A DNA stretch of 64,000 bases from Dehalococcoidia bacterium (GTDB lineage Bacteria; Chloroflexota; Dehalococcoidia; Lucifugimonadales; Australimonadaceae): the NCBI GenBank assembly GCA_963668465.1, contig OY764542.1:1094153-1158152 (forward strand), in the 5' to 3' direction. Position 1 is the first letter of the stretch. Each line of letters begins with the position of its first letter. Under the pieces are notes generated by a model. That model was not told where the DNA came from and did not search any database. It saw only the letters and a program-made list of their open reading frames with translations. A program made the translations under genes and the position numbers. Shown here in pieces: positions 1 to 37,744 of this stretch.

Positions 1-360
1 TTCGGGGCGGCGCTCGCCGACCCCGCTCTCGAACTCGGCAGGGTCAGGGAACGCGAGGACGGCCACAGCCGCAACCAGTGGGAGGCGGCGCTGACTGCGT
101 GGGCCGCCTTCCTGACCGAAGCAGAATGGAATGAAACGCTGACGGTCGTCTACACCGAAGAGATTGCCAATACCCTGCACATCCACGCACTCTACCTGCG
201 CCGGGTTCTCGCCAGGGCGCAGAATATGAAACCGCGGACAGCCGAGGCGGCCAAAGCACTGGCCGTGCTGGAACGGCATCGCCACGAACTGGAAGACGTG
301 GTGACCAGTATCGGCGTCCCACTGCCGGGAGAAGAGTGGCACCCGATGCCGAGCAGATAG
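1..360 (+). CDS. 3' end of a gene running off the left edge; hypothetical protein
   Basis: Frame 1 is open from nt 1 to TAG at 358-360 and gives a non-repetitive, protein-like peptide (..LTAWAAFLTEAEWNETLTVVYTEEIANTLHIHALYLRRVLARAQ..). It is missing from the ORF track only because it has no start codon inside the window. Confidence 0.4.
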   Translation, partial: FGAALADPALELGRVREREDGHSRNQWEAALTAWAAFLTEAEWNETLTVVYTEEIANTLHIHALYLRRVLARAQNMKPRTAEAAKALAVLERHRHELEDVVTSIGVPLPGEEWHPMPSR

Positions 361-734
361 TTCTCCAAGACATCGCACGCACGATGTACAAAGATTAGCC
401 ACTTACCGTATGGGCTTGCTCACCGCGGTGTTCGCGTTGACGGCACGGGCAACGCCATTTCACGCGGTACCACCACCACGGATAGGGGCAGGGTGTGCAG
501 GAGCACGCTCCAACCACCCGCTAGGGTGCCAATCGAATGGCACCTACGACGTGAACTCTGTAGGGGTTCCCACTGTAGGCCGATACCGATTTGCCTGACG
601 GCGCGGGAGACCTCCCCGCCACTGCGCAGATGCTCAGGGGATGACTTCGGGCTGCACCGGCCTACAAGCGGGGGTTATCGTGCGGGATACTCCGCAGCGA
701 AGCGTCGCTAGGGCCAAACTGAATAGAGGACAAT

Positions 735-770
735 GCATTGAGGGGCGCGGATTTCCGCGCCCCTCAATGC
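735..770. other. Perfect 16-bp inverted repeat (hairpin) with a 4-nt loop
   Basis: gcattgaggggcgcgg-attt-ccgcgcccctcaatgc read directly; no T-run follows on either strand. Confidence 0.7.
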
Positions 771-1325
771 TGTATAGACCGGAGACATGGTTTACGGGTG
801 TTCAGAGACATACTTTACACATCCGGGCACCTTGTGACCTCCGGTTCAGGGCCACGCAGGTCCCCGTCGGCGATGGGGTGTGTCATGAACCAGACGCTTT
901 GTGGGCGCGACCTGATGACGCTCCGCACTCCCGTTCGCTTCCGTTCCTCGTGGGACTGCGGGGCATCACTCGCACACTGCGCCATCGCCGTTGGCTCCGT
1001 TCGCCAGGGACGGAACCGGCTTGCCGTCCCTGAGGGTGCGCCAGTCGGCGTGCAGTTGGACGGGATGCTCTCCGGTACTCCCCCTGGTACCGCATCGCTG
1101 GAGGTCGTAACCGCCCCCACTCCCTGGCGAGATTGCGATACAGGTTTCGATCACGGCACATTCGCACCTGAGCCGGACACCCATGGCGAGGTGCTCGATC
1201 CGCTTCCAACCGACACTCCTATCGGGGTGACTCTGGAGTCTTCCGCGAGTCAACATAGATGCACATCCATAGCTCTCCGATGCGGATCATTCCGCCCGGC
1301 ACCTTGAGGAAATCGATGAGACGTA

Positions 1326-1344
1326 CCCCCCCCCCCCCCCCCCC
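1326..1344 (+). repeat. Homopolymeric C19 tract
   Basis: Counted directly: 5+10+4 C. It lies 7 nt after ATG 1316-1318, and that ATG is preceded by GAGGA (1306-1310). Confidence 0.95.
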
Positions 1345-1362
1345 GTCGTCGGAACACCCCTC

Positions 1363-4300
1363 TTGCCCGCACTCGCGGTGCTTGTATCTGTGGCCTTTGG
1401 CTTGTGGCTGCTTCCCGTCGGGTTTCTCCATGCCCAGACGCCCGAGATCATCGAGTACGCGGAGCACACGCCGGTAGCCAGTCCGGTGGCGACGTTCACG
1501 GCGACGGACGACGAGGACGACAAGGCGGGGAAAGCGCTTACCTGGTCGGTTGAGGGCACCGACGCTGGGTATTTCGACATCTCTCAGAGAGGAGTCCTCA
1601 CCTTCAAGGAGTCTCCCGACTATGAGAATGCGAAGGGCAGAGGCTCTGGCGAGTCTGCGAATACGTACACCGTAGACGTGGTGGCTACCGACAGTGCTAG
1701 TGGTAAGGGTACCCATTCCGTCGTCGTGAAGGTCACGAACGAGGACGAGCCCGGGACGTTGACGCTGTCGAATCGCCAGCCGGTGGTGGGGGTGGCGCTC
1801 ACGGCGACGCTCACCGATGTTGACGGTGGGGTTTCAAATGAGCAATGGCAGTGGGCACGGAGCTCCAATCGGGGAGGCCCCTTCGTGACCATAGAGGCGA
1901 CCGAAACCAACGGTGCCGGGACGGTTGCGTATGTTCCCGATTCGACGGACACGGGGCGCTACCTGCGCGTGACAGTGACCTATACCGACGCCGAGGGCCC
2001 GGGAAAGCAGGAGTCCGTGGTCTCGGACAGAAGCGTGCTGGCACGCCGGGCCGCGAATGCGGCTCCTGTGATCATAGATAGTGATGGAAGTCCAATCACG
2101 GCTACCTCGATCGATAGGGATGTTGCGGAGAATTCGCCTGCGGGCACACCGGTGGGTGACTCCATCGGCGTCAGCAACCCCGAACGTGACGTGCTGACCT
2201 ATACGCTGAGCGGCGATGACGCCGGGAAGTTCACCATCGACTCAAGTGGTCAGATCCGGGTAGGTCCCGGCACGGAGCTGGACACCGAGGGAACAGCTAC
2301 CTTCAGCGTCACCGTTACGGTCTCGGATGGCAACCTGGCCGGTTTGGCAAACTTGGCGACCTACTCAGACTCCGTTGGTGTGGCTATCGGAGTGACGGAC
2401 GTTCCGGAGCCGCCCGAGTTGAGCGGGAAGACATCCGTTTCACACCCGGAGAACACCTCGATAGAGACTCCCGTGGCCGCGTACAAAGTGACCGATGATG
2501 AAGACGATTTTGCCGAAACAGCTGTTGGAGTGACGTTGTCGGGTGCAGACGCGAGTGCCTTCACGTTGACCGACAGCAGCTCAGCTGGTGGAACAGCCGA
2601 TGACGGCACGTGGGAGCTAGCCTTCAAGTCGATGCCTGATTTCGAGTCTCCGGTGGATGCGGGCAGGAACAACACGTACAACGTGACGGTGAGGGCGACT
2701 GACAGTGCTGGACGCACCGACGTTCTGAACATAGCGGTGGTGGTGACGAACGTGGACGAGGAGGGGACGGTGAGCCTGTCGACGCTGGCGCCGAAGGTAG
2801 GGGTTGAGCTGACGGCCACGCTCACGGGCGACCTGGATGGGAGGCCATCCCGTGTCACCTGGAAGTGGGAGAGGGCTGACAGCGGTGCGTTTGGCGATAG
2901 CGACAGCGTCACAGTCATCAGCGGGGCGACGTCGGCTTCCTACACTCCGGTTCACGCGGATGCGGGAAAGTACCTTCGGGCGACGGCGCTGTACGCGGAC
3001 CCCCAGGGGCCGGGCAAGAGTGCGGGTGTGGTTTCGGCGGGCGCTGTGGCGGCGTCGAACAAGCCGCCGTGGTTCGACGACCCTAGCACTGGTGATAAGG
3101 ACGAGAGCATCAAGGAGATAGCTCAGGAGGAAGGCGAGTTCCAGGCGGAAACCGATCTGGGAGATTCGGTCAGCGCCACCGATCCTGAGAATGCGCAACT
3201 GACGTACGAGTTGAGCGGTGATGCGGCCCTGTTCATTATCGACCGTTCGACGGGTCAGATAAAGGTGAGGGCGGGGACGACGCTGGACTACGAGACGAAG
3301 AGCAGCTACGTGGTGCGGGTGAAGGCGACGGACCCTGATGGAGCGAGCGCGACTGCCACGGTGACCATCAACATCACCGATGTCCCCGAACCCCCAGTGA
3401 TTTCCGGGACTGGTTCCTTTAGCTTCTTGGAGCACACGCCGATAAACCGTCCGGTGGCGACGTTCAGGGCGACGGACGATGAGGACGACAAGGCAAGGAA
3501 GGCACTGACTTGGTCGGTTGAGGGCACCGACGCTGGGTATTTCGTCATATCCCAGAGAGGAGTTCTCACCTTCAAGGAGTCCCCCGATTATGAGAATGCA
3601 AAGGGCGAAGGCTCTGACGAGTCTGCGAATACGTACGACGTAGACGTGGTGGCCACCGACAGTGCTAGTGGTGAGGGTACCCATTCCGTCGTCGTGAAGG
3701 TGACCAACGATGACGAGCCCGGGACGTTGACGCTGTCGAATCGCCAGCCGGTGGTGGGGGTTGGGCTCACGGCGACGCTCATCGACGTTGACGGTAGGAT
3801 TTCAAATCAGCAGTGGAAGTGGGCGTGGGGCACCAGCCGTGCCGGTCGCTTCACAGACATGGATTCAACCGATCTCCCCACCTACGCCCCCGTTGAGGTT
3901 GATGGACGGCGCTACCTGCGTGTGACGGTGACCTACACCGACGGTCAGGGATCCGGGAAGACGAAGTCGGCGGTTTCGGAGCGGCCGGTGCGGGCAGCCA
4001 AGGATTCGGATACCACCCCCGTATTTGTAGATGACAGAGGGACCGAGATCACTGATGGCTCAATCACTCGGGAAGTGCGAGAGAACTCGCGCGCGGGCAC
4101 GCTAGTGGGTGGGCGCGTCAGGGCCAGGGACCCTGAGGGAGACGTGCTGACCTTCGCGCTGGACGGCGATGACGCCGGGAAGTTCACCATCGACTCGAAC
4201 GGTCAGATCAAGGTGGGTCCCGGCACGGAGTTGGACGCCGAGGAAGACTCCCTCGATGTCACGGTCACGGTCACGGACGGGGTTAAGAATACTACTTCCA

Positions 4301-5814
4301 TCAATGTGACCATCACGGTGACGGACGTTCCGGAGTCGCCCGAGTTGAGCGGGAAGACATCCGTTTCACACCCGGAGAACACCTCGATAGAGACTCCCGT
4401 GGCCGCGTACAAAGTGACCGATGATGAAGACGATTTTGCCGAAACAGCTGTTGGAGTGACGTTGTCGGGTGCAGACGCGAGTGCCTTCACGTTGACCGAC
4501 AGCAGCTCAGCTGGTGGAACAGCCGATGACGGCACGTGGGAGCTAGCCTTCAAGTCGATGCCTGATTTCGAGTCTCCGGTGGATGCGGGCAGGAACAACA
4601 CGTACAACGTGACGGTGAGGGCGACTGACAGTGCTGGACGCACCGACGTTCTGAACATAGCGGTGGTGGTGACGAACGTGGACGAGGAGGGGACGGTGAG
4701 CCTGTCGACGCTGGCGCCGAAGGTAGGGGTTGAGCTGACGGCCACGCTCACGGGCGACCTGGATGGGAGGCCATCCCGTGTCACCTGGAAGTGGGAGAGG
4801 GCTGACAGCGGTGCGTTTGGCGATAGCGACAGCGTCACAGTCATCAGCGGGGCGACGTCGGCTTCCTACACTCCGGTTCACGCGGATGCGGGAAAGTACC
4901 TTCGGGCGACGGCGCTGTACGCGGACCCCCAGGGGCCGGGCAAGAGTGCGGGTGTGGTTTCGGCGGGCGCTGTGGCGGCGTCGAACAAGCCGCCGTGGTT
5001 CGACGACCCTAGCACTGGTGATAAGGACGAGAGCATCAAGGAGATAGCTCAGGAGGAAGGCGAGTTCCAGGCGGAAACCGATCTGGGAGATTCGGTCAGC
5101 GCCACCGATCCTGAGAATGCGCAACTGACGTACGAGTTGAGCGGTGATGCGGCCCTGTTCGATATCGACCGTTCGACGGGTCAGATAAAGGTGAGGGCGG
5201 GCACAACGCTGGACTACGAGACGAAGAGCAGCTACGTGGTGCGTGTGAAGGCGACGGACCCTGACGGAGCGAGTGCGACTGCCACGGTGACCATCAACAT
5301 CACCGATGTCCCCGAACCCCCAGTCATTAGACGAGGAGGCTTGGCCGTGGTGGGGCCGGGCAGCCTGCGGTACGCCGAGAACGGATCGGGTCCGGTCGCA
5401 ACCTACAGGCCTGCGGGGCCGAAGGCGGCCACGGCGCGATGGGGTTCGCTATCAGGTGCTGACGCGGGGAAGTTCAGTATCTCCACGGGAGGAGTACTCA
5501 CATTCAAGGCGCCTCCCGACTACGAGGCCCAGGGAAGTGCCGATGGAGACAACGTCTACCATGTCGTGGTGACGGCGAATGACGGAGAGAACGACCCAGC
5601 CGTGCGCCATGTGACCGTCACCGTCACCGATGTTGACGAAACGTCCACCGGAGACCCCCTGCTGGATAGGTGGGACGCCAATCGGAATGGCAAGATCGAC
5701 AGGTCTGAGGTCACCCGCGCCATCAATGCGTACTTCGATGGAGGGCTGCAAGCGGGCGATAGGGCGGTGGTGATACAGCTCATGGAGCGCTACTTCCAGG
5801 ACGCGCAGAGCTAA
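1363..5814 (+). CDS. Giant secreted cadherin-like repeat protein with a C-terminal dockerin/EF-hand-like Ca-binding loop
   Basis: 1483-aa ORF. N-terminal hydrophobic stretch (LPALAVLVSVAFGLWLLPVGFLHAQ). Repeated cadherin-type modules (V.EN.P.GT.VG.., LTY.LSGDDAGKFTID..GQI.V, TV.ATD). Alternating beta-sandwich modules (L.ATL.D.DG....W.W......YLR.TV.YTD..G.GK). C-terminal DANRNGKIDRSEV loop. The track start is TTG 1363; the likely true start, ATG 1316, is one frame off across the C19 tract. Confidence 0.85.
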   Translation: MPALAVLVSVAFGLWLLPVGFLHAQTPEIIEYAEHTPVASPVATFTATDDEDDKAGKALTWSVEGTDAGYFDISQRGVLTFKESPDYENAKGRGSGESANTYTVDVVATDSASGKGTHSVVVKVTNEDEPGTLTLSNRQPVVGVALTATLTDVDGGVSNEQWQWARSSNRGGPFVTIEATETNGAGTVAYVPDSTDTGRYLRVTVTYTDAEGPGKQESVVSDRSVLARRAANAAPVIIDSDGSPITATSIDRDVAENSPAGTPVGDSIGVSNPERDVLTYTLSGDDAGKFTIDSSGQIRVGPGTELDTEGTATFSVTVTVSDGNLAGLANLATYSDSVGVAIGVTDVPEPPELSGKTSVSHPENTSIETPVAAYKVTDDEDDFAETAVGVTLSGADASAFTLTDSSSAGGTADDGTWELAFKSMPDFESPVDAGRNNTYNVTVRATDSAGRTDVLNIAVVVTNVDEEGTVSLSTLAPKVGVELTATLTGDLDGRPSRVTWKWERADSGAFGDSDSVTVISGATSASYTPVHADAGKYLRATALYADPQGPGKSAGVVSAGAVAASNKPPWFDDPSTGDKDESIKEIAQEEGEFQAETDLGDSVSATDPENAQLTYELSGDAALFIIDRSTGQIKVRAGTTLDYETKSSYVVRVKATDPDGASATATVTINITDVPEPPVISGTGSFSFLEHTPINRPVATFRATDDEDDKARKALTWSVEGTDAGYFVISQRGVLTFKESPDYENAKGEGSDESANTYDVDVVATDSASGEGTHSVVVKVTNDDEPGTLTLSNRQPVVGVGLTATLIDVDGRISNQQWKWAWGTSRAGRFTDMDSTDLPTYAPVEVDGRRYLRVTVTYTDGQGSGKTKSAVSERPVRAAKDSDTTPVFVDDRGTEITDGSITREVRENSRAGTLVGGRVRARDPEGDVLTFALDGDDAGKFTIDSNGQIKVGPGTELDAEEDSLDVTVTVTDGVKNTTSINVTITVTDVPESPELSGKTSVSHPENTSIETPVAAYKVTDDEDDFAETAVGVTLSGADASAFTLTDSSSAGGTADDGTWELAFKSMPDFESPVDAGRNNTYNVTVRATDSAGRTDVLNIAVVVTNVDEEGTVSLSTLAPKVGVELTATLTGDLDGRPSRVTWKWERADSGAFGDSDSVTVISGATSASYTPVHADAGKYLRATALYADPQGPGKSAGVVSAGAVAASNKPPWFDDPSTGDKDESIKEIAQEEGEFQAETDLGDSVSATDPENAQLTYELSGDAALFDIDRSTGQIKVRAGTTLDYETKSSYVVRVKATDPDGASATATVTINITDVPEPPVIRRGGLAVVGPGSLRYAENGSGPVATYRPAGPKAATARWGSLSGADAGKFSISTGGVLTFKAPPDYEAQGSADGDNVYHVVVTANDGENDPAVRHVTVTVTDVDETSTGDPLLDRWDANRNGKIDRSEVTRAINAYFDGGLQAGDRAVVIQLMERYFQDAQS
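2411..3243 (+). repeat. Copy 1 of an 833-bp perfectly identical intragenic direct repeat, part of a 1926-bp super-repeat
   Basis: Identical by direct comparison to 4337-5169 (offset 1926 nt = 642 codons). Flanking parts of the super-repeat are visibly more diverged. Confidence 0.85.
4337..5169 (+). repeat. Copy 2 of the 833-bp perfectly identical intragenic direct repeat
   Basis: See 2411-3243. The first mismatch after the block is at 3244 (a) versus 5170 (g). Confidence 0.85.
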
Positions 5815-5817
5815 TCG

Positions 5818-6831
5818 ATGGGGGGGGGGGGAACCCGCGCGATGACAAAGGCGATGGAGACAAGGGCATTGTTCAGAAGGATACTCGCGTTCGCGGCAGT
5901 AGCAGCATGCGTGGCTGCCGTGGGGATGCTGAGCCTCAGTGCGTTGTCAGTACAAGCGCAGCAAACCCCAAGCGCCACGAGGCAGATCTCGCCTGCAACG
6001 GTAGCACCTGGAGGCACACTGACGGTTACCATCACTGCTTCGGGTTTTACCTTCGCACAGCTGATAGAGACGCTGCCCCCTGGATTCGAGTACGTGTCGA
6101 GTTCCTCGGAGGAGGTGCTGCGGGGCGAGGACAAGCTCACATTCGTATTGCTGAGCGGAGACCCCCCGATCAGATACACGCTCAAGGCTCCGGCTCCTCA
6201 ACTGGCGACGGTGTACACGTTTGTCGGAGAACTGAAGACTGCTGCCGGGAACAATGTTCCGGTTCATGGTGATCTAAGTGTGACCGTTCGCGCTACTCCT
6301 GCGCCGACCGCGGAGCCCACGGCAGAACCGACCGCGGAGCCCACGGCAGAACCGACCGCGGAGCCCACGGCAGAACCAACAGCGGAGCCCACGGCAGAAC
6401 CAACAGCGGAGCCCACGGCGGAACCGACTGCAGAGCCCACGGCGGAACCGACCGCAGAGCCCACGGCGGAGCCGACAGCAGAGCCCACGGCGGAGCCAAC
6501 AGCACGACCCACTCCGGAGCCCACCGCAGAGCCCACGGCGGAGCCAACAGCACAACCCACTCCGGAGCCCACCGCAGAGCCCACGGCAGAGCCAACAGCA
6601 CAACCCACTCCGGAGCCCACCGCAGAGCCCACGGCAGAACCAACGCCTACGCCGATCCCCATCGTCCCGCCGGTCGTTCTAGAAGAGGGAGGTACCCCTG
6701 GCTGGGTAAGCATCCTGGTCGTTCTCGGCCTGATAGGCGCAGTGGTGGCTGGGGGCTTCGCCATCGGGATGCGACAACGGAGCGGGCGACCGCTCTTCGG
6801 GCACCGTAGGGGGGAAGGGACCGGGAGCTAG
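5818..6831 (+). CDS. Surface protein: signal peptide, about 130-aa beta-rich domain, long (PTAE)n linker, C-terminal TM helix plus basic tail
   Basis: 337-aa ORF. Signal-like RILAFAAVAACVAAVGMLSLSALSVQA. About 28 PTAE/PTAQ units. C-terminus GTPGW-VSILVVLGLIGAVVAGGFAIGM-RQRSGR. The start is ambiguous (ATG 5818, 5842 or 5854). Confidence 0.75.
   Translation: MGGGGTRAMTKAMETRALFRRILAFAAVAACVAAVGMLSLSALSVQAQQTPSATRQISPATVAPGGTLTVTITASGFTFAQLIETLPPGFEYVSSSSEEVLRGEDKLTFVLLSGDPPIRYTLKAPAPQLATVYTFVGELKTAAGNNVPVHGDLSVTVRATPAPTAEPTAEPTAEPTAEPTAEPTAEPTAEPTAEPTAEPTAEPTAEPTAEPTAEPTAEPTAEPTAEPTARPTPEPTAEPTAEPTAQPTPEPTAEPTAEPTAQPTPEPTAEPTAEPTPTPIPIVPPVVLEEGGTPGWVSILVVLGLIGAVVAGGFAIGMRQRSGRPLFGHRRGEGTGS
5820..5831 (+). 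repeat. Homopolymeric G12 tract
   Basis: Counted directly. It starts with the G of ATG 5818-5820, 4 nt after the TAA stop of the cadherin gene. Confidence 0.95.
6298..6642 (+). repeat. Tandem 12/24-nt coding repeat encoding (PTAE)n
   Basis: ccgaccgcggagcccacggcagaa units read directly, with synonymous and PTAQ/PTAR variants toward the 3' end. Confidence 0.9.
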
Positions 6832-6842
6832 CTGTAGTTCCT

Positions 6843-9800
6843 ATGGACATTGCTTACGGCTGGAAGGCGAGAGTGGCTCCTATGAATCCCCGGGGGACCT
6901 TGTTGCTCGCGCTGGCGGCAGTTGCAGTGCTCATGCCCTTCTCCTTGCTCTCACCACGGATCGCCGCCGCCCATTCGGTTGCCGCCTCACCAGAACTGCC
7001 GGTGGTTACCGTTGAGGCCGGTGACGACACCTGTGGCGACAAGGGCGCCCATTTCACCCTTCACCTGGACGCCGATACCGGAACCGATGGCCGCCAAGCC
7101 CTTGACCGTAGTCTCCAGGTTCGGTTCTTGGTTGGCACCAATCGAAGGTCGATTGGCGAGCGTCAGCCTACCGAACCGGACAACGGATACGTCAGGGTCG
7201 GTGCGTGGGGAGACGACGAGATCCGCAATCATGTTGGCCGCACCGAGTTCGCCGCTGGCCAGACTTCAAAGCGCATCTCGATCAATACCCAGGATCCAGT
7301 GCCAACTGCCACTGATGAGGAGTTAGGCATCAATGGACAGGATGGCGATGTGCAGGTGAATTTGAATGGCTTTGACAGCCCGCCTACCGGACATAGGGTT
7401 GGCAAACCGGGGGTTGCCAGTGTCGATGTGCACCACTCCGACGGTCGCACTTGCCCCACCCCTCGAACCACTGGTGCGGGGGTGACGATTGTGGAATCAG
7501 ATGGTTCCACGTCGGTTGCGGAGGACGGGGGGGCGGACAGCTACACGGTGGTGCTGGACACGCAGCCGACGAACCCCGTGACCATCGCCGTCACGTCGGA
7601 GACGCCAGGGTCCGCCACGGTGAACAAGAGCGGCGGCACCGCAGGGGAGAGCCAGACGCTGACCTTCACGACCAGCGACTGGAACCAGAGGCAGACAGTG
7701 ACGGTGACCGGGGTCAACGACGCCATCGACAACCCCACCAGCCGCACCTCGACGATCACCCACACAGCGACATCGACGGACACCACCTACAAGGGCATCA
7801 CCATCGCATCGGTGACGGCTACCGTGATCGACGACGATGGTGCGGGAGTGACGATCGTGGAATCAGACGGTTCCACGTCGGTTGCGGAGGACGGAGGGAC
7901 GGACAGCTACACGGTGGTGCTGGACACGCAGCCGACGCACTCCGTAGACATCACCGTCACATCGGGCACGCCAGGGTCCGCCACGGTGAACAAGAGCGGA
8001 GGCGTTGCAGGGGCGAGCCAGACCCTGACGTTCACGACCGCCAACTGGAACCAGCCTCAGACGGTGACGGTGACCGGGGTCAACGATGACGTCGACAACC
8101 CCACCAGCCGCACCTCGACGATCACCCACACAGCGACATCGACGGACACCACCTACAAGGGCATCACCATCGCATCGGTGACGGCTACCGTGATCGACGA
8201 CGATGGTGCGGGGGTGACGATCGTGGAATCAGACGGTTCCACGTCGGTTTCGGAGGACGGAGGGACGGACAGCTACACGGTGGTGCTGGACACGCAGCCG
8301 ACGCACTCCGTAGACATCACCGTCACATCGGGCACGCCAGGTGCCGCCACGGTGAACAAGAGCGGAGGCGTTGCAGGGGCGAGCCAGACCCTGACGTTCA
8401 CGACCAGCGACTGGAACCAGCCTCAGACGGTGACGGTGGCCGGGGTCAACGATGACGTCGACAACCCCACCAGCCGCACCTCGACCATCACCCACACAGC
8501 GACATCGACGGACGCCACCTACAAGGGCATCACCATCGTGTCGGTGACGGCTACGGTGATCGACGACGATGGTGCGGGGGTGACGATCGTGGAATCAGAC
8601 GGTTCCACGTCGGTTTCGGAGGACGGAGGGACGGACAGCTACACGGTGGTGCTGGACACGCAGCCGACGAACCCCGTGACCATCACCGTCACTTCGGGCA
8701 CGCCAGGTGCCGCCACGGTGAACAAGAGCGGAGGCGTTGCAGGGGCGAGCCAGACCCTGACGTTCACGACCAGCGACTGGAACCAGCCTCAGACGGTGAC
8801 GGTGGCCGGGGTCAACGATGACGTCGACAACCCCACCAGCCGCACCTCGACCATCACCCACGCAGCGACATCGACGGACGCCGAGTACAACGAGATCAAT
8901 ATCGTGTCGGTGACGGCTACCGCCACTGATGACGATGCGCCCGCGGTCGCATTCGGTGCGTCGGCGTACACGGCAGGCGAGGCATCGGGGAGCCGCAACG
9001 TCAACGTGGCGGTGAACGTCTCACCTGCGCCGGCCTCGGACATCGCTGTGGCGTACGCGGTGCAGGGCTCGGCGACCCCGGGCGACGACTACACTGCCCT
9101 CTCGGGCAGTTTGACAGTACCCGCTGGCGCGACTTCGGCGAGTATCGCCGTGGCGGTGGTCGACGACAACATCGACGACGATAACGAGACGATCATCCTC
9201 ACCCTCACCAACGCCTCCGCCTACAATCTCGGCACAACGACATCCACCACGGTGACGATCACCGACGATGACCTCAGAGCGTTGGGATTGCAGCAGCAGA
9301 GTCCGATCCACAAACCCGTCGTCACCGTAAGCGCGTCACGATCTTCCGTCATCGAGGGTTCTCCTGCCTTGTTCACGATCAAGGCGAACCCCGCACCGGC
9401 CGGCCCGCTGCCGGTCATGCTGACGATTGCGCAGACGGGGAACGTCGTGGACCCGAACGATTTGGGAACGAAGACGGTCATCATTCGTACCCTGGCAGGG
9501 ACCTACACCCTGGTGGTGGAGACGGTTGGCGACAGCGTCGACGAATCGCATGGGTTAGTGCGCGTCCAGGTCGCCGTGGCAGATGGCTATGACATCGGGA
9601 GGCAATCGGCAGCATCCGTCATAGTCGAAGACGACGAGGACCCCCGCGTCGTCATCAGCCGGTCCAGCATGGGTCTCACGGAGGGGAGCACCGGGACATA
9701 CACGGTGCGGTTGAACACCGATCCCGGCGGGACGGTAACGGTTCGGCCCGCCTCCGAAGACGCGGGTGCGGTACGGGTCTCCCTCGCGTCGCTCACCTTC

Positions 9801-10697
9801 AACAGCGCAAACTGGCGGACGCCGAAGACCGTCACGGTTAGGGCGATGAGCGACAGCGATGCACGGCATGAACGGACCACCCTCACTCACCGGGTGAGCG
9901 GCTACGGCAGCGTTTCCTCGGGCCCATCGATCATCGTGCGCGTGAGCGACGACGACGTGGCGACTCCAACACCCACGCCTGTAACCTCCGCCGCACTCGC
10001 GCTGGCCAGAACACCGACTCCTACCCCATTCCCGACACCAATGCCAACCCATCCCCTGACAGCGATTCCAACCCAAGCTCCAACGCCGACGGCGCTCCCC
10101 TTACTGGCTGTCGATCCCACGTCAACGCCCACGCCTACTCCAACGCCAACCGCAATTCCTCTGCCGGCCCCAGATTCGGTTCAGCAGAACACGGTCGAGC
10201 CTTCGGCCACTCCTACACCTACCCCCACGGCGATTCCGGCGCCTGTGCCAGTCATCACGATACCCGGTGGTGATAACAGCCTAGGGGGGGTGCTGCTGGT
10301 GGGTGGACTGCTCATCGGCACGGGTGCGCTCGGCTATCTGGGTTCCTGCCGCTATCGGCGGCTGGAGCGGAAGCCGTCAGCGGCAGACCTGAAGTACGCC
10401 GCAGTCTCGCTAGGCGCACGCCTCCATGGAACGTGTATTCATCTGAGGAGAATGGGCAAGGGAGCGGTTTTCACCCTTCGAAGTCTGCCAGGCCGGTTAA
10501 TGGTGGCTGGACTGATGACAGCGGCAGATATCAGCAACTCCATCGAGAGTCTCCGCAGCAATCCTGGAGGTGACCGGCGTTCCGCGCAATCACGGCGCAG
10601 TGCGTCCTCGGAAGCTGCTACACCTAGCACCCGATGCGAGAGACTCTTCCTTCTGCTGCGAAACAAGTTGTTCTGGGGAGAGAGACAGGCCCGGTAG
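6843..10697 (+). CDS. Giant surface protein with tandem beta-sandwich repeats, Calx-beta-like domains, a Pro/Thr linker and a C-terminal TM anchor
   Basis: 1284-aa ORF. Signal-like LLLALAAVAVLMPFSLLSPRIAAA. Four near-identical 122-aa modules (..LTFTT.NWNQPQTVTV.GVNDD..) plus a fifth, diverged one. Calx-beta-like segment (GDDYTALSGSLTVPAGATSASIAVAVVDDNIDDDNETIILTL). PT-rich linker, then GGVLLVGGLLIGTGALGYLG-CRYRRLERK. The last roughly 100 codons look non-native. An alternative start is ATG 6882. Confidence 0.8.
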   Translation: MDIAYGWKARVAPMNPRGTLLLALAAVAVLMPFSLLSPRIAAAHSVAASPELPVVTVEAGDDTCGDKGAHFTLHLDADTGTDGRQALDRSLQVRFLVGTNRRSIGERQPTEPDNGYVRVGAWGDDEIRNHVGRTEFAAGQTSKRISINTQDPVPTATDEELGINGQDGDVQVNLNGFDSPPTGHRVGKPGVASVDVHHSDGRTCPTPRTTGAGVTIVESDGSTSVAEDGGADSYTVVLDTQPTNPVTIAVTSETPGSATVNKSGGTAGESQTLTFTTSDWNQRQTVTVTGVNDAIDNPTSRTSTITHTATSTDTTYKGITIASVTATVIDDDGAGVTIVESDGSTSVAEDGGTDSYTVVLDTQPTHSVDITVTSGTPGSATVNKSGGVAGASQTLTFTTANWNQPQTVTVTGVNDDVDNPTSRTSTITHTATSTDTTYKGITIASVTATVIDDDGAGVTIVESDGSTSVSEDGGTDSYTVVLDTQPTHSVDITVTSGTPGAATVNKSGGVAGASQTLTFTTSDWNQPQTVTVAGVNDDVDNPTSRTSTITHTATSTDATYKGITIVSVTATVIDDDGAGVTIVESDGSTSVSEDGGTDSYTVVLDTQPTNPVTITVTSGTPGAATVNKSGGVAGASQTLTFTTSDWNQPQTVTVAGVNDDVDNPTSRTSTITHAATSTDAEYNEINIVSVTATATDDDAPAVAFGASAYTAGEASGSRNVNVAVNVSPAPASDIAVAYAVQGSATPGDDYTALSGSLTVPAGATSASIAVAVVDDNIDDDNETIILTLTNASAYNLGTTTSTTVTITDDDLRALGLQQQSPIHKPVVTVSASRSSVIEGSPALFTIKANPAPAGPLPVMLTIAQTGNVVDPNDLGTKTVIIRTLAGTYTLVVETVGDSVDESHGLVRVQVAVADGYDIGRQSAASVIVEDDEDPRVVISRSSMGLTEGSTGTYTVRLNTDPGGTVTVRPASEDAGAVRVSLASLTFNSANWRTPKTVTVRAMSDSDARHERTTLTHRVSGYGSVSSGPSIIVRVSDDDVATPTPTPVTSAALALARTPTPTPFPTPMPTHPLTAIPTQAPTPTALPLLAVDPTSTPTPTPTPTAIPLPAPDSVQQNTVEPSATPTPTPTAIPAPVPVITIPGGDNSLGGVLLVGGLLIGTGALGYLGSCRYRRLERKPSAADLKYAAVSLGARLHGTCIHLRRMGKGAVFTLRSLPGRLMVAGLMTAADISNSIESLRSNPGGDRRSAQSRRSASSEAATPSTRCERLFLLLRNKLFWGERQAR
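7473..8936 (+). repeat. 4 x 366-bp tandem intragenic repeat
   Basis: ggtgcggg(g/a)gtgacgat.gtggaatcaga.ggttccacg recurs at 7473, 7839, 8205 and 8571 (period 366 nt = 122 codons). Confidence 0.9.
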
Positions 10698-11338: not shown

Positions 11339-12124
11339 TCAGGTCGCGGTTGGCGGGTCAAACACCCCCTTCGGCGCCGAGATGGCACGGTGCGGCGAGA
11401 GCCGTTCGCGGTAGCTCTGGCCTTCGATGACGATCTGGTAGCTGGCGTTGGCGAGGCGGTCGAGGGCGCTGTTGCCGAGGATGGGGTCCTCGAAGAGGCT
11501 GAGCCATTCCTCGACGGCGCGGTTGGAGGTGATGATGAAGCTGGAGACGCGGTGTCTGCTGATGATCAACTGGTAGAGGTCGGCGGACTGCTGCGCGGTG
11601 AGGCGGTGGAGCCCGAGGTCGTCGAGGATGAGCAGGTCGGGGGAGAGGAAGGAGCGGAATGCCCGGTCGAGGGAGTTGTCGACCCTTGCCTGGGTCATGG
11701 TGCGGAAGAAGTCGTCGGCGTGGATGAAGCGCACGGTGTAGCCGGAGCGGATGGCGGCATAGCCGAGGGCCTGTGCGAGGAAGCTCTTGCCGACGCCAGC
11801 AGGGCCGAGCAGCAGGACGTGCTCGTGCTTGATGAGGAACTCCAGGGAGAACACGGCGTCCAGCAGACGGCGGTCCAGAGTGACGGACGCTGTCCAGTCG
11901 AAGTCTTCGAGCCTGCAGGTCTCCTCGAAGCCGGCGCTGCGGAGCCGGAGGTCGATGCGCCGGTGCTCGCGGCGGTTGACCTCGTCAGCGAGGATGATCT
12001 CGAGGAACGATGCGTAGTCGAGCTGCTCCCTGCGGGCGAGGGCGATGCGTTCAGGCAGGGTGTCCAGCATCGCGCTGAGCTTGAGCCGCTTGAGCAGCGG
12101 AGAGAGTTCGGCATTGCGGGTCAT
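11339..12124 (-). CDS. istB: IS21-family helper ATPase IstB
   Basis: Walker A GPAGVGKS, Walker B LLILDDLG, length about 261 aa. ATG 12124 overlaps the istA stop (ATGA). The longer track ORF (to 12382) is an upstream extension into istA. Confidence 0.9.
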   Translation of the reverse strand: MTRNAELSPLLKRLKLSAMLDTLPERIALARREQLDYASFLEIILADEVNRREHRRIDLRLRSAGFEETCRLEDFDWTASVTLDRRLLDAVFSLEFLIKHEHVLLLGPAGVGKSFLAQALGYAAIRSGYTVRFIHADDFFRTMTQARVDNSLDRAFRSFLSPDLLILDDLGLHRLTAQQSADLYQLIISRHRVSSFIITSNRAVEEWLSLFEDPILGNSALDRLANASYQIVIEGQSYRERLSPHRAISAPKGVFDPPTAT

Positions 12125-13698
12125 GATTGACCTCCCGTTGTTGAGTGATTGCTGAAGGCGAAGACGCTGCCGGGGCGGGTGAAGCGCCCCGGAGGCAACG
12201 GCTGTGGGTGCTCCTGCACCTCGGCCTGCTCCAGGGCCTCCACCAGGATGCGCTCGACGCGGCGCACGTCGATGAGGTCGACGGCCAGGGCCTTGCGGCA
12301 GGCGTCGTCGAGGCGCTGGGACGTGTAGCGCTGGCCGAGGCGCAGCAGCTTGTGGCCCTGGCGTATCTTCGCCCACGGCCATGGGCCGTCGAAGAGACGC
12401 TCGGCGAGTTCAGCCACTGCGGAACCGTGCTCGGCCGCGCCGCGTTTGATCCAGTCCGGAGCTCGGAGCGTGTAGGGAGTCAGTTCGGCGGGATAGTCGG
12501 CGTGGTCGGTGGCACGACCACCGCGGGGCTGCCGCGGATGGACCTTGATCAGCCTGCCCCGGTGATAGATACGCACCAGCTTGGCGCCCAGCCCTATCTC
12601 CACCTGCTGGCCCGGGGGGCAGAGGGTCGTCGGCACCGAATAGAGGGCATACTGGCAGGACACGTGGTGGTCGGGATGCACCTTGGCTGTGCGCCAATCG
12701 GTAATCTCGTAGGGCACACCGTCCCACGCGAGCAGGGCATCGCGCTCCTCCGCCTTGAAGACCGCCAGCGGCTGCCGTCGGGTGGTGCCGTGCACCCGAT
12801 GTCCGGCGACGTCACGACACCAGCGCGCAGCCTCATCCCGCACGTGGGTCAGGTCCCTGAAACTGCCGCCCTTGAAGAACCGCTCCCGCACGTATTGGAC
12901 CCCGCGTTCCACTCGGGGCTTGTCCTTGGGGTGGCGCACTCGCGCCGGGTCGCAGATGAAACCCCGGTGCTGGGCATACTCCAGGAATCCGCGCGTCAGC
13001 CGGGGATTGAGCGCGTCGGCACCCGCCACCGCGGCAGGAAAGTTGTCGATGACCAGGTAGCGGGGAACGCCGTCGAAGAAGGCCCACGCCGCTTCCAGCC
13101 CCGCGATCACGTCCTCCAGCTTCTGACCGTAGGTCGGCCAGACGAAGCTGTGCCGAGAGTGGGACAGCACCACGATCAGCGCCCACACCGTCCGGTTGCG
13201 GCCGGTCTCCGGATCGGGCAGCCGTCCCAACCGTCCGAAGTCCAGTTCTGCCACTTCTCCCGGCGCGGTGGACTCCATGCGAACGGTCGCCCGACTGCGT
13301 CGCTGCCAGTTGCGCCGTTGGATGAAGCGCCTCAGCGTCGTGTAGGAGACTCGGCAGCCCCGTTCCTCCAGCAACTCGAGGATACGCGTCAGCTGAAGAC
13401 GGTCCACCGTGAGCCACTGGTATATCTGCTCAGCCCAGGGAACCAGTTGGCCGTCGACCGGTCGCGGCGAACTCCGAGGGCCGGAACGCCCCATCGCCGC
13501 CAGACGGCTGAGCTGCTCCTCCGTGGGGGCTGGACCGCTCTCGCATACGCCAGCCTCCAGGGCCGCGTCCACATACTTGCGAACCGTCTCTCGCGACAGC
13601 CCGGTCCCCGACGCTATGTGCCGCTGGCTGTTCCCCCTCTGCCACCGCCGGATAACTTCCTCTATGTCCACTCTGGACACCTCCCTGTAAGCCATCAC
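12121..13698 (-). CDS. istA: IS21-family transposase IstA
   Basis: 525-aa ORF with an N-terminal HTH region and a DDE-type core, placed immediately upstream of istB in the canonical IS21 arrangement. Confidence 0.85.
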   Translation of the reverse strand: MMAYREVSRVDIEEVIRRWQRGNSQRHIASGTGLSRETVRKYVDAALEAGVCESGPAPTEEQLSRLAAMGRSGPRSSPRPVDGQLVPWAEQIYQWLTVDRLQLTRILELLEERGCRVSYTTLRRFIQRRNWQRRSRATVRMESTAPGEVAELDFGRLGRLPDPETGRNRTVWALIVVLSHSRHSFVWPTYGQKLEDVIAGLEAAWAFFDGVPRYLVIDNFPAAVAGADALNPRLTRGFLEYAQHRGFICDPARVRHPKDKPRVERGVQYVRERFFKGGSFRDLTHVRDEAARWCRDVAGHRVHGTTRRQPLAVFKAEERDALLAWDGVPYEITDWRTAKVHPDHHVSCQYALYSVPTTLCPPGQQVEIGLGAKLVRIYHRGRLIKVHPRQPRGGRATDHADYPAELTPYTLRAPDWIKRGAAEHGSAVAELAERLFDGPWPWAKIRQGHKLLRLGQRYTSQRLDDACRKALAVDLIDVRRVERILVEALEQAEVQEHPQPLPPGRFTRPGSVFAFSNHSTTGGQS

Positions 13699-21461: not shown

Positions 21462-23105
21462 TTACTCCTGCCGCGCTCTGTCCTGCTCGATGAGGACGCG
21501 CCGCAACAGTTTACCGGAGGCGTTCTTGGGAATGGCGTCGATGAATTCGACCTCGCGCAGCTGCTTGAACGTCGCGACGCGCTCCGCAACGAACGCCATG
21601 AGTTCATCGGCAGAAGGCGCGTGGTCCGCTTTGCAGACCACGTACGCCTTCGGCACCTCGCCTGCTTCGTCGTCGGGCATCGGGATGACGGCGGCGTCGG
21701 CGACGCCGGGGTGTTCGAGCAGCAGGCCCTCCAACTCGGCGGGCGCGACCTGGAAGCCCTTGTACTTGATGAGCTCCTTTTTGCGGTCGACGATGCTCAC
21801 GTAGCCGTCCTCGTCCATGCTGGCGATGTCGCCGGTGTGGAACCAGCCGTCCGGCGTGATGGCCTCCGCAGTCGCCTCCGGCTGGCGGTAGTAGCCCTTC
21901 ATCACCTGCGGGCCGCGTACCAGCAGCTCGCCGAGTTCACCAGGCGGGAGATCGCAATCGCCGGACTCGAGGTCGACGATGCGCTCCTCGGTGTCCGGCA
22001 GCGCGGGGCCTATCGTGCCGGGCCTGCCGCGCTCGTCGGTGAAGTCGGTGTTGGTCATGGGGGATGTCTCGGTGAGGCCGTAGCCCTGGATGACGGCGCA
22101 GCCGAGCCGCTCCGCGAGGCGGGTCTGCAACTCGCCGGAGAGCGGGGCCGCTCCGGTGAGCAGGAATCGCAACGATGAGACGTCGTACTCGTCGAGCAGC
22201 GGCGTCAGCGTGAGGCCGAGGCAGACGGGCGGCACGGTGTAGAGCACCGTCATGCGGTGCTCCGCGATGAGCGCCAGCATCTCGCGCATGTCGAAGCGCC
22301 CCATCATCACCTGCGTCGCTCCGGCGGCGATGGCGCTCAACTGGAGCACGGTCATGCCGTAGATGTGGAAGAGCGGCAGGTGCACGAGCATCACGTCGCC
22401 GCGCCGGACGACGCCGTCCTCGCCGGGGCGTCCGAGGTTCTGCCGGACGTTGGTATGGAGGTTGGAGTGCGTGAGCATGACGCCCTTCTGCAGGCCGGTG
22501 GTGCCGGAGGAGAAGGGCAGCGCGGCGATGTCCTCGTAGGGGTCGAGCGCGGGCTCGGGCGGCGGGCCGCTCTGCGCCTCGATGAGCGACCAGAACGAGG
22601 GCGCCGTATCGGCGTCTTCCGTGATGAGGACGCGTCCTATGGCCTCCTCCGAGCCGGACAGCGCGAGGTCGGCGGCGTCCGCCAGCGTGTGATGGACGAT
22701 GAGCGCCTGTGCGCCGGAGGCCTCCAGCTGGTACGCGATCTCGCGTTCTCGGTATCCGGAGTTGATGGTGGTGACGGTGGCGCCAGCCTTGAGTATGCCG
22801 AAGAAGGCAATCTCGAACTCGGCGCAGTTGGGCGAGAGGATGCCCACGATGTCACCCTTGCCGAGGCCCATCGCGGCGAGGGCGGACGCGAACCTGCCGG
22901 AGTGCGCGTCCAGCTCCGCGAAGGTGAACCGGCGGTCGCCGTCGATGATGGCGGTCTCGTCGGGCCATCGCTCGGCGGCCTGCTGCAGCAGTCGCTGGAC
23001 GGGCTCCGGGTTGTATGGGGCGAGTGATGAGCGGCTCATGGGCTTCGGCTGACCTGTGCGTCCGTGATTCGGCGTGAAACTATCCGACGCGCCGGTAGCA
23101 GTCAA
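21462..23105 (-). CDS. AMP-dependent acyl-CoA synthetase/ligase (4-coumarate/long-chain fatty-acid CoA-ligase-like)
   Basis: FSSGTTGLQKGVMLTH (AMP-binding core), GYGLTETS, GWFHTGDI, KYKGFQVAPAELE, and a C-terminal KNASGKLLRR. Confidence 0.85.
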   Translation of the reverse strand: MTATGASDSFTPNHGRTGQPKPMSRSSLAPYNPEPVQRLLQQAAERWPDETAIIDGDRRFTFAELDAHSGRFASALAAMGLGKGDIVGILSPNCAEFEIAFFGILKAGATVTTINSGYREREIAYQLEASGAQALIVHHTLADAADLALSGSEEAIGRVLITEDADTAPSFWSLIEAQSGPPPEPALDPYEDIAALPFSSGTTGLQKGVMLTHSNLHTNVRQNLGRPGEDGVVRRGDVMLVHLPLFHIYGMTVLQLSAIAAGATQVMMGRFDMREMLALIAEHRMTVLYTVPPVCLGLTLTPLLDEYDVSSLRFLLTGAAPLSGELQTRLAERLGCAVIQGYGLTETSPMTNTDFTDERGRPGTIGPALPDTEERIVDLESGDCDLPPGELGELLVRGPQVMKGYYRQPEATAEAITPDGWFHTGDIASMDEDGYVSIVDRKKELIKYKGFQVAPAELEGLLLEHPGVADAAVIPMPDDEAGEVPKAYVVCKADHAPSADELMAFVAERVATFKQLREVEFIDAIPKNASGKLLRRVLIEQDRARQE

Positions 23106-23149
23106 CGCGGCGGCAGTATGCGCGGACTCCTATAATGCGCTTGTCTGTC

Positions 23150-23181
23150 GATGACACGTCCGAGTGATGACACGTCCGAGT
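23150..23181 (+). promoter_or_regulatory. Perfect 2 x 16-bp tandem direct repeat in the PKS leader; candidate operator
   Basis: gatgacacgtccgagt occurs twice back to back, ending 11 nt before the PKS ATG. TATAAT at 23131-23136 lies just upstream. Confidence 0.5.
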
Positions 23182-23192
23182 GAGAGGAAGTG

Positions 23193-26100
23193 ATGGCATC
23201 CGAGGGGAAGGTCGACTCCAGCAGACTCCCCAGCGAGTCCGTGGGCGGAGAGCCCATCGCGGTGGTAGGGATGGCGTGCCGGTTCCCCAGCGCCACGGGG
23301 CTTCCGGCGTTCTGGCGTCAGTTGGAGGCCGGTGAGAGCGCGGTCATCGAGGGCGTTCCAGGTTCCGGCGTCGGGCGCGTGGGCTACCTCTTCCCGGACG
23401 CAGCGGTACAAGCCGAGGCGTGCCGTTTCGGGGCGTACATCGACGAGATCGACCAGTTCGACGCGGGGTTCTTCCGCATCTCCCCGGTGGAGGCGCAACT
23501 GCTGGACCCGCAGCAGCGGCTGATGCTGGAGACGAGCTGGCGAGCGCTCGAAGACGCGGGGATCGACCCGGACACGCTGAAGGGCAGCCGCACCGGGGTC
23601 TACGCGGGCATCAGCAACAACGAGTACCGGGGGCTGATCCTTGGCGTCAGCGACACCGCCGACCCCGCCACGAGCCTCTACACGGTCACCGGCACGTCGT
23701 TCAACACGGCCATCGGGCGCGTGGCGTTCGCACTGGGGCTGCAAGGGCCGGCGATAGCGGTGGACACGGCGTGCTCGTCGTCGCTCGTGGCGGTGCACCA
23801 GGCAATCGTCGGTTTGCAGCGCGGCGAGGCCGACCTTGCGCTCGCGGGAGGCGTGCACGCGATCCTGTCGGGGCGGTTGCTCGAGCTGCGAGCGAACGCC
23901 GGGATGCTGGCGCCTGACGGCCAATGTAAGACGTTCGACGCCGCAGCGAACGGGTACGTGCGGGGCGAGGGCTGCGGCCTCCTCGTGCTGAAGCGGCTGA
24001 GCGAGGCGGAGGCGGACGGCGACCGGATCTGGGGCGTGATACGCGGCTCGGCGCTGAACCAGGACGGGGCGAGCCAGGGGCTGACGGTGCCGAGCGAGAG
24101 CGCCCAGGAGCAGGTGATCGAGGCGGCGTTGCTCCGGGCAGGGCTGGAGCCGTGGGAAGTGGACTACGTGGAGGCGCACGGGACGGGGACGCCGGTGGGC
24201 GACCCGATCGAGATGCAGGCCACGGGAACGGTGTACAGCAGGGGCCGCGAGGCAGACCGTCCGCTCCTCGTCGGGTCGGTGAAGACGAACATCGGCCACC
24301 TGGAGTCCGCGGCGGGCGCCGCCAGCCTCATCAAGGTGATGCTGGCGATGAAGCACCGGGTCATCCCGAAGCACCTGAACTTCCGCAACCCGAACCCGGA
24401 GATCGACTGGGAGCGGATGACGGTGCGGGTGGCGTCGGAGACGATGGAGTGGCCGGTCGTTCCCAACCGTCCACCCCGAGCAGGAGTGAGTGGATTCGGA
24501 TGGTCGGGCACGAACGCGCACGTCATCGTGGAGGGGTACGGGGAGCCTATAGCCGCTGACGCGGGGAACGGTCTGCCGGCGGGGCCTTCGGTGGCTATCG
24601 CGGTTGCGCAGGCGGAGGCTGGACACCCCCATCCTAGCCTTCCCCCATCGAGGGGGAAGGGACCGGAAGTCTCGACAGCGGAGGAATGGGAGTTGGCGGC
24701 GCGGGGGACGCGACTGCTGCCGCTGTCGGGGAAGTCGAGGCAGGCGCTCAGGGAGCAGGCGGAACGGTATATCGCGTGGCTCGACGAGCATCCCGAGCAG
24801 TTCCCACACGACGGCGCGGCCAGCGGCGAAGCGCTGTCAGACATGGCGTGGACAGCGAGCGTCGGGCGGAGTCACTTCCCGCACCGCTCGGGCGTTGTCT
24901 TTCGCAATGCGGCGTCGCTGCGCGAGCGGCTGCGGGAGGTCGTGGAGGGGGACGACACGCCCGACGGGCCAGAGCCGAAGCCTGCGTCCAAGGTGGCGTT
25001 CGTCTACACCGGCCAGGGCAGCCAGTGGGTGGGGATGGGAGAGGCGCTGTACGAGAGTGAGCCGGTGTTCCGCGCGGTGCTCGACCGGTGCGAGCGATGG
25101 GTGCAGGAGCACCGGGGAGCGTCGCTGCTGGACGTGCTGTTCGGACGGCCCGGCGCGACGGGCAGCCTCGACGACCCGATGTGGACGCAGCCCGCGACCT
25201 ACGCGCTCCAGTGCGGGCTGACTGCGCTCTGGTCGAGCCTGGGCGTGCATCCGGACGTCGTGATGGGCCATAGCCTCGGTGAGATTGCGGCTTCGCAGAC
25301 TGCAGGCGTGTTCAGCCTCGAGGACGGGCTACGGTTCGCGGCGACGCGCGGCGAGCTGATGGCGTCGCTGCCGGTGTCGGGCGCGATGGCGGCGGTGTTC
25401 GCGCCTGAGGCCCACGTGGGGGCTGCTCTAGAGGAGTGGAACGCTGCGACAGAGGGGCTGGGGTTGAGCGTCGCGGCAGACAACGGAGCGCACCAGGTGG
25501 TGAGCGGCGAGGCGGGGGAGGTAGAGCAGATCGTGCAGCGGTTCGAGGCAGAGGGGCTTCGCGTGAACCGGCTGCGGAGCAGCCCCGGCTACCACAGCGT
25601 GCTCGTGGAACCGGCGCTGGACGATCTGGCTGCTGTGGTTGGCGACCTTGCGGTCGCGCCGCCGTCCATCCCACTGGTGAGCAACGTGACTGGCCGGTTG
25701 ATCGCGCAGGGCGGCGTGCAGGACCCGGCGTACTGGCGGCGGCACGCGCGGCAGCCGGTGGCGTTCCGGGGGTGCGTCGAGACGCTGGCCGAGATGGGCG
25801 TCGACGCAGTCGTGGAACTGGGGCCGCACACGGTGCTGGGGCCGATGGCGAGCCTCGCGTGGCCGGAGACGAGCGCCGCCCCGGCGGTGCTATCGAGCCT
25901 GCACCGACCGCCGCGGGACCCGGCAGAGCCCATCGTGGACTCGACGGGTGGGTTCATCGAAGGAGTCGCCGCGGCGTACGAGGCGGACATCCCGTTCTCG
26001 TTCGCAGGGCTGTTCGCCGGGGAATCGCGGCGGCGGGTCGCGCTGCCGGGGTATCCATTCCAGCGGCAGTCGTACTGGGTCGACGAGGTGCGGCGGCGGC

Positions 26101-35237: not shown

Positions 35238-35412
35238 CAGGGTAACTCCTTTCGGGGGTCCGCATGGGTGCGGGAGGCGTTGGCACGAGGATAGCGACAC
35301 ACTCCCGACGGGGTCAAGTTCGAGTGCCGAAACTCCGGCCTCGTGACGCCGTCAGGCGAGGACTACCGCGGGGCTAAGAGTAGCCAGGTTTTGAGCCTCC
35401 AGGACACCGTGT

Positions 35413-36420: not shown

Positions 36421-36432
36421 AGCAGTCTCCCT

Positions 36433-37680: not shown

Positions 37681-37744
37681 CTCTTTTCCCGGCGGTCGTT
37701 GGTTCTGAGGGGCGCCCCAGGTCATGCAGGGAGTCTCAAGGCGT

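Follow-up and report, generated by a model that had tools for sequence, protein, structure and literature searches.

Slipped-strand switching is textbook biology for Neisseria, Haemophilus, Campylobacter, and Bordetella. In Neisseria, the pilC tract reportedly lies in the signal-peptide region of the gene, as is attributed to Jonsson et al. in 1991. The proven phase-variable G/C tracts of Neisseria range from G9 to G20 in pilC and from G9 to G21 in pglA (PMC5953494). On deep resequencing, Neisseria tracts of at least 8 nucleotides (nt) were predominantly variable, with G/C tracts prevailing among the strong candidates (PMC5084427). Here I describe a run of 19 C residues (C19) at the 5′ end of a cadherin-repeat gene of a Dehalococcoidia bacterium. 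The gene lies in a 64,000-nt stretch of contig OY764542.1 (positions 1,094,153 to 1,158,152 of the forward strand), hereafter called the window, to which all positions refer unless another locus is named. With moderate confidence, I propose that C19, which falls in the n-region of the signal peptide of a secreted adhesin-like protein, is a slippage-prone, contingency-type ON/OFF switch.

The locus resembles that of Neisseria pilC (and pglA, lgtA, and nalP) in that a pure G/C run lies in the 5′ coding part of a surface- or adhesion-related gene. The change of state would be an ON/OFF frameshift in both, and the Neisseria tracts of 9-21 nt bracket C19 (PMC5953494). Moreover, some lineages have the tract while their relatives lack it, as is the case for pilC-type tracts. 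On the other hand, the window gene belongs to the class Dehalococcoidia of the Chloroflexota and to an unrelated protein family, and the switching demonstrated experimentally in Neisseria is a proposed one here. Another comparison is offered by the insect endosymbionts Buchnera and Blochmannia, whose poly(A) homopolymer frameshifts are conserved across lineages and rescued by transcriptional slippage. As in these endosymbionts, a long homopolymer is the only interruption of an otherwise intact gene in a probably host-associated bacterium. However, their tracts are poly(A) and their frameshift is conserved, while the window tract is poly(C) and the frame state varies between orthologues. Nothing relevant on homopolymeric phase variation or contingency loci in Chloroflexota or in sponge-type symbionts was found by full-text searches of the literature.

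The C19 tract, the start codon, and the orthologous genes

The pure C19 run occupies positions 1326-1344 of the plus strand and begins 7 nt past the start codon ATG 1316-1318. A Shine-Dalgarno (SD)-like GAGGA (1306-1310, plus strand) precedes this ATG with a 5-nt spacer. The frame of ATG 1316, as assembled, reads MRRTPPPPPPSSEHPS... (MRRT, six prolines, and SSEHPS...) and ends at TAG 1475-1477, so that the plus-strand OFF-state frame (1316-1477) encodes only 53 amino acid residues. The tract makes up codons 4-10 as poly-Pro and is pure, without synonymous interruptions. The long frame is open from 1273, just past TAG 1270-1272, to TAA 5812-5814, and C19 puts its 1,489-codon cadherin-repeat open reading frame (ORF) one base out of phase with ATG 1316. 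There is no ATG, GTG, or TTG in the long frame from 1273 to TTG 1363. When the gene was rebuilt with tracts from C8 to C24, ATG 1316 was fused to the ORF at lengths of 3n+2 only (17, 20, and 23), while C19 gave the product of 53 residues and C18 and C21 gave products of 78-79 residues. These results bear out most of what the first-pass annotation of this DNA had read here, namely ATG 1316 behind GAGGA at a 5-nt spacing, MRRT followed by a proline run encoded by 1326-1344, a long ORF in another frame without a start codon before TTG 1363, and fusion at a length of 20 or 17. One detail has to be corrected; TTG 1363 does not lie in the middle of the hydrophobic core but encodes the seventh residue of a stretch of about 28 residues, near its beginning. 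The run of six to seven prolines beside the start codon should make translation EF-P-dependent.

The nearest loci are throughout those of uncultured Dehalococcoidia metagenome-assembled genomes (MAGs), one of them labelled SAR202, and many of these are chromosome-level assemblies. Two of them contain the orthologous gene: OZ242348.1 (locus L001), from a related Dehalococcoidia MAG, and OZ244813.1 (locus L005), from a more distant one. In OZ242348.1, the same GAGGAA, ATG, and AGACGTA are followed by C9, which is in frame with an ORF of 1,480 codons. The translation starts at the aligned ATG with MRRTPPRQRNALLPVLGVL... and reads MRRTPPRQRNALLPVLGVLVSAALGLWLLPVGFLHAQ.... In OZ244813.1, the same SD sequence and ATG are followed by a gene without the tract, which begins MRQELNRSLSRRNVLLPVLAL... 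and has 75% amino acid identity. Since the SD sequence and the ATG are common to both orthologues, ATG 1316 is the native start, from which the window gene would be translated only with a frame correction. The first-pass annotation had suggested a comparison of the tract in relatives; it shows a length polymorphism at the orthologous site between genomes of different species, with C19 in the window against C9 in OZ242348.1 and no tract in OZ244813.1.

Between positions 1201 and 1347, there are zero substitutions between the window and OZ242348.1. The three differences are indels, all of them homopolymeric (C2/C3 at 1291, A3/A4 at 1309, and C19/C9). With a 10-nt difference in the tract and no substitution around it, the tract has changed in length by 10 nt over a time in which its upstream flank stayed unchanged. 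Further downstream, a C4 run (1357-1360, plus strand) has one C more than in OZ242348.1. This 1-nt indel at 1357 is the second frame-affecting indel and shifts the ON length class, which is 3n in OZ242348.1 and 3n+2 in the window. Positions 1348-1398 are dense in substitutions, which fits a signal-peptide n-region whose reading frame differed over time. In OZ244813.1, an internal G12 (L005 6849-6860) was found 283 codons into the cadherin gene, where the sequence has 4 nt more than every homologue. It splits the otherwise intact gene into two frames, and G11 would restore the frame. Tracts were acquired independently by the same cadherin gene in two lineages.

The cadherin-repeat ORF itself (1345-5814, plus strand) is uninterrupted over its 1,489 codons. 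In the Pfam analysis, the 1,489-residue protein matched Cadherin (E = 2e-58) in six stretches, together with Big_9, RibLong, and PKD, in agreement with the first-pass annotation, which had recognized a 4.4-kb cadherin-repeat gene. Besides the tract, there is no second lesion in the 4.4 kb. Compared with OZ242348.1, the nonsynonymous divergence (dN) is 0.068 and the synonymous divergence (dS) is 0.154, which gives a dN/dS of 0.44 at an amino acid identity of 88%. Because its 1,489 codons are otherwise intact with this dN/dS, the ORF is, on the sequence comparison, an intact gene under purifying selection and not a decayed pseudogene. Directly after the tract, the long frame encodes a hydrophobic stretch (1345-1434, plus strand; VVGTPLLPALAVLVSVAFGLWLLPVGFLHA, followed by Q) that aligns with the N-termini of both orthologues. 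Its Kyte-Doolittle 19-residue means reach 2.35 and it ends with LHA before the Q. The stretch may be cleaved as a signal peptide or retained as a signal anchor; the "convincing signal peptide" of the first-pass annotation is backed by the hydrophobicity, but an anchor would do as well. Given such a signal or anchor ahead of the cadherin, Big_9, and PKD repeats, the product is predicted to be surface-exposed or secreted and adhesin-like, and it may function as an adhesin.

The gene has an internal tandem duplication of about 1.9 kb (1461-3402 and 3429-5328), of which OZ244813.1 has one unit. In the C-terminal part of the protein (5680-5720), the sequence DANRNGKIDRSE fits an EF-hand/dockerin-type calcium loop by eye, on which Pfam is silent.

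Length statistics and the proposed switch

The G+C content of the window is 65%. Short homopolymers become rare quickly with increasing length: 42 C5, 2 C6, and no C7 runs, and 67 G5, 6 G6, and 2 G7 runs in the 64 kb. Homopolymers longer than 7 nt are three only, namely C19 at 1326, G12 at 5820, and C12 at 37745. In dinucleotide shuffles, 0.02 C/G 12-mers are expected in the window. In 3rd-order Markov simulations, 0.01 runs of at least 12 nt are expected, and none of the 300 trials gave a run longer than 12. All three tracts of at least 12 nt are at gene 5′ ends, no more than about 70 nt from a start codon. No other repeat type that is able to act as a switch was found in the window. A census of about 2.5 Mb of related loci gave 22 G/C tracts of at least 9 nt, 6 of which are at least 12 nt in length.

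The C19 locus has several of the features by which contingency loci are recognized: a repeat of at least about 8 nt (PMC5084427, PMC5953494), its placement past the real start, polymorphism between genomes, an intact gene, and a surface-type product, which is usual for such loci but not required. Because a pure G/C run lies past the true start, at a length-tolerant site of a surface-protein gene, and differs between genomes, the locus has the anatomy of an ON/OFF switch. The first-pass annotation had already spoken of a phase-variation architecture; this part stands, and the conserved start, the n-region placement, the intact ORF, and the tract that differs in relatives are now added to it. 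In the proposed mechanism, strand slippage in replication would alter the run length. The 3n+2 lengths would join ATG 1316 to the 1,489-codon ORF and turn the gene ON, at the cost of merely extra prolines in the n-region. The remaining lengths would be OFF, as translation would stop after the 53 residues of C19 or the 78-79 residues of C18 and C21. The OFF states would probably lower the expression of the two tightly packed downstream genes too. As a result, the population would undergo stochastic and reversible ON/OFF switching of the gene, and the assembled 19 would be an OFF length. The parts of this scheme that I infer are the slippage rate, the reversibility, the heterogeneity within the population, the polarity on genes 2 and 3, and the adaptive value. 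Faithful replication of a 19-nt run is not possible, which makes some ON/OFF heterogeneity at C19 close to unavoidable. The OFF state says little alone, because two of three random lengths are OFF.

Several points weigh against the switch. The length variation was seen between species alone, and no conspecific copy was found. Gapped and exact pattern scans for the tract flanks in genome contigs and JGI metagenomes gave no matches. A protein database search with the fused N-terminus gave no match closer than 51% identity and no ON-form N-termini. Exact look-ups of three proteins of the window gave no match either. The species of the window thus has no copy in the genome contigs, JGI metagenomes, or protein collections searched. 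In addition, the OFF call is unproven, as it depends on a single base in the kind of sequence that is hardest for any consensus (PMC9262707), and a 19-nt homopolymer may come out one base wrong. Both orthologous tracts of the window exceed their counterparts in OZ242348.1 in length (19 versus 9, and a pure G12 versus an interrupted G7), which could be due to a lineage-wide slippage bias and not to selection for switching. The n-regions, spacers, and untranslated regions (UTRs) are tolerated sites where neutral tracts survive too. Lastly, the search of the full-text literature gave no report of phase variation in Chloroflexota.

The strongest of the other explanations, although an unlikely one, is that the consensus length is wrong, an alternative that the first-pass annotation had raised as well. 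In this case, the true modal tract would be C20 (or C17), the gene would be in frame with a poly-proline n-region, and the OFF state would be an assembly artefact. Long homopolymers are a recognized weak point of long-read consensus, where indel errors cause the same kind of single-base frame break as seen here (PMC9262707). At the longest homopolymer of the window, the reading frame is shifted by exactly one base, and the only other frame-breaking tract found, the internal G12 of OZ244813.1, is also off by one in a chromosome-level and probably long-read assembly. On the other hand, no long ORF in the window is broken; those of 3,358, 1,489, and 1,284 codons are uninterrupted, and the first of these, a polyketide synthase ORF, argues for generally few indel errors in the assembly. 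Unlike a simple long-read error, C19 is backed by the orthologous tract of OZ242348.1 and by tracts in short-read MAGs. A length error accounts for the OFF call only, and neither for the existence of the tract nor for the 10-nt difference from OZ242348.1. Even a true C20 would be hypermutable, with which switching is compatible. The tract density is alike in long-read-style and short-read MAGs of the relatives, and because similar tracts occur in the short-read MAGs, the tracts are biological and not a platform (long-read) artefact.

Some short-read MAG contigs end at such tracts, one exactly at a G20 (L040 11605-11624) and another 9 nt past a C11 (L029 18985-18995), so that long tracts seem to interrupt short-read assembly in these organisms. 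A chimeric join at the C19 tract was also considered and rejected. The window is collinear with OZ242348.1 there, without a step in identity, which declines gradually (96.8% in 1001-1250 and about 97% in 1400-1600).

Somewhat more doubtful is the explanation that the slippage is non-adaptive. G/C runs would have expanded in this lineage, for example because of weak mismatch repair, and the gene would have become inactivated or unreliable recently and by accident, with a tract that is tolerated but not selected. The longer orthologous tracts mentioned above are in favor of this explanation, as is the number of tracts of at least 12 nt per base, which is about 20 times higher in the window than in the 2.5 Mb of relatives. 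The long tracts of the relatives are mostly intergenic and cost-free there, and a dN/dS of 0.44 is fairly relaxed. However, accidental inactivation does not agree well with the lack of a second lesion in the 4.4-kb ORF, with the independent gain of tracts by the same gene in two lineages, with the purity of the tract, or with the position of all three window tracts at gene 5′ ends.

Recoding is improbable. It would mean that a fixed C19 is expressed through slippage of RNA polymerase (+1 C) or through −1 slippage of the ribosome on CCC codons. A 19-nt run is longer than the RNA:DNA hybrid, tRNA-Pro can re-pair in any frame, and a single −1 shift suffices. At a recoding site, however, the frameshift should be conserved, whereas OZ242348.1 is in frame and OZ244813.1 has no tract. 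G/C runs are also held to be less prone to transcriptional slippage than A/T runs (PMC5084427). At best, recoding would add leaky expression on top of the switching at the DNA level. Finally, translation from TTG 1363 or GTG 1378, the first possible starts in the long frame, with the tract in the 5′UTR and ATG 1316 opening a 53-codon upstream ORF, is hardly credible and was rejected, as both codons lack an upstream SD-like sequence, a product begun there would be without the charged n-region present in all orthologues, the TTG is CTG in OZ244813.1, and the orthologues begin at the aligned ATG.

The operon and the other tracts

The cadherin gene and the next two genes look like a three-gene operon of secreted repeat proteins with the cadherin gene at its head and spacers of 39 and 11 nt. 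Gene 2 (5854-6831, plus strand), probably the second gene of the operon, encodes a predicted secreted protein with a Pfam PT repeat, and its start was placed at ATG 5854 by comparison with OZ244813.1. Gene 3 (6843-10697, plus strand) follows after 11 nt and encodes a Calx-beta repeat protein of 1,284 residues. The second tract, G12 (5820-5831, plus strand), lies in the 39-nt spacer between the stop codon of the cadherin gene (5812-5814) and the start codon of gene 2. Its counterpart in OZ242348.1, GGGGGGGCGGAG, has the same length and is interrupted by two substitutions. Both tracts of the operon are preceded by the octamer AATCGATG (1311-1318 and 5813-5820) in the context GAG..AATCGATG. The common octamer may be chance or a trace of duplication.

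Internal repeats are also seen in the downstream genes, namely 24/48-nt PT repeats in gene 2 (6304-6644) and four 366-nt repeats in gene 3 (7472-8922). The region of about 950 nt upstream of the cadherin gene (360-1315) has no ORF recognizable by Pfam and is nearly identical in OZ242348.1. Rfam and promoter/terminator scans of 300-1500 gave no promoter and only a weak hairpin match. There is a strong hairpin around 735-770, whose Rfam match to STnc40 (29.7 bits) is below the threshold. Just downstream of the operon lies an IS21-type element on the minus strand (11339-13698), with an IstB ATPase (11339-12382) and a transposase (12121-13698).

The third tract is related to another type of known system. 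In Neisseria opc and in the Bordetella fim genes, the tract lies within or upstream of the −35 and −10 elements and alters their spacing. The opc tract is a poly-C/G tract in the promoter (PMC3960869). In the window, the third tract is a G12 on the minus strand (37745-37756), which starts 3 nt past the conserved −10 hexamer belonging to a two-component operon with a HisKA_3 kinase and a LuxR-type regulator. The promoter-like element upstream of the kinase gene (37760-37788, minus strand) consists of TTGCGG, a 17-nt spacer, and TAGATT, and was aligned with 8 orthologous upstream regions. Like opc and fim, it combines a promoter region with a G/C homopolymer that could tune transcription. In contrast to them, a change in its length would alter the start site or the 5′UTR and not the spacer, because the tract begins downstream of the −10 hexamer and is therefore predicted to lie at the transcription start or in the 5′UTR. 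The kinase orthologues of other MAGs have the promoter without the tract and show GGGCGGCG or an unrelated sequence instead. In comparison by ComM synteny, the third tract has no counterpart, as the kinase/regulator pair is absent from the relatives at that place. The pair with its tract (35296-38134) is an insertion of about 2.8 kb relative to the otherwise syntenic loci L027, L028, and L030.

A long tract was also found in OZ241751.1 (L037 4299-4325), where a G27 separates the C-terminal tail of an N6/N4 DNA methyltransferase from the start of a MutH/MvaI-BcnI-like endonuclease. As annotated, these neighbors are a restriction-modification pair, a gene class that is typically phase-variable. 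Other tracts of the relatives are in non-coding repeats. A G19 (L076 3183-3201) lies within an array of CCTCAGAATGACA-containing repeats, a non-coding repeat family, and a duplicated non-coding element (L022 768-956) has copies with C8 and C9.

The organism, gene flow, and possible significance

The window is collinear with OZ242348.1 over positions 1-8853. The genome backbones of the two are about 87% identical, and they are therefore different species. The possibility that OZ242348.1 belongs to the same species, which would make C19 versus C9 a within-species polymorphism, was rejected on this ground and on the lack of the kinase locus in OZ242348.1. In spite of this divergence, the identity is 99-100% at positions 1-1000 and drops gradually to 88-92% within the operon in a mosaic pattern, which suggests recent gene flow of this region between the two lineages. 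For sponge-associated MAGs, enrichment and lateral exchange of cadherin-domain genes have been reported (PMC8163846), and recent gene flow of the region fits this exchange. Judging from its relatives, the window organism is probably sponge-associated as well.

Taken more widely, the tracts permit a tentative proposal, which I regard as possible but less secure than the switch at C19 itself. A lineage of uncultured, probably sponge-associated Dehalococcoidia (SAR202-type Chloroflexota) may have evolved a small set of G/C-tract contingency loci, whose tracts would phase-vary eukaryote-like cadherin adhesins that are exchanged horizontally and would act on a two-component regulator as well as, in relatives, on a restriction-modification system. 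If true, this would be the first phase variation by simple sequence repeats described in Chloroflexota, and contingency-locus biology would be extended from host-adapted pathogens into this phylum. Cadherin-domain proteins are thought to mediate attachment to sponge host tissue (PMC8163846), and here a mutualist, and not a pathogen, would vary stochastically the proteins thought to mediate host attachment. Symbiont populations would then be mixtures of adhesive and non-adhesive cells, which bears on the persistence of symbionts, their escape from host feeding or phage attack, and their spread between hosts. A practical consequence is that gene callers cut short, or start wrongly, those large surface-protein genes of MAGs that contain such tracts, and the tracts are the places where the long-read consensus is least reliable.

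Some minor observations concern the surroundings of these loci. The nearly identical stretch shared with OZ242348.1 corresponds to window 1-1300 and L001 4648-5950 and decays gradually into the operon. Upstream of it, OZ242348.1 has an rve_3 transposase and a 617-residue leucine-rich-repeat protein. Elsewhere in the window (21462-33266), an AMP-dependent ligase on the minus strand adjoins the uninterrupted 3,358-codon type I polyketide synthase (KS-AT...).

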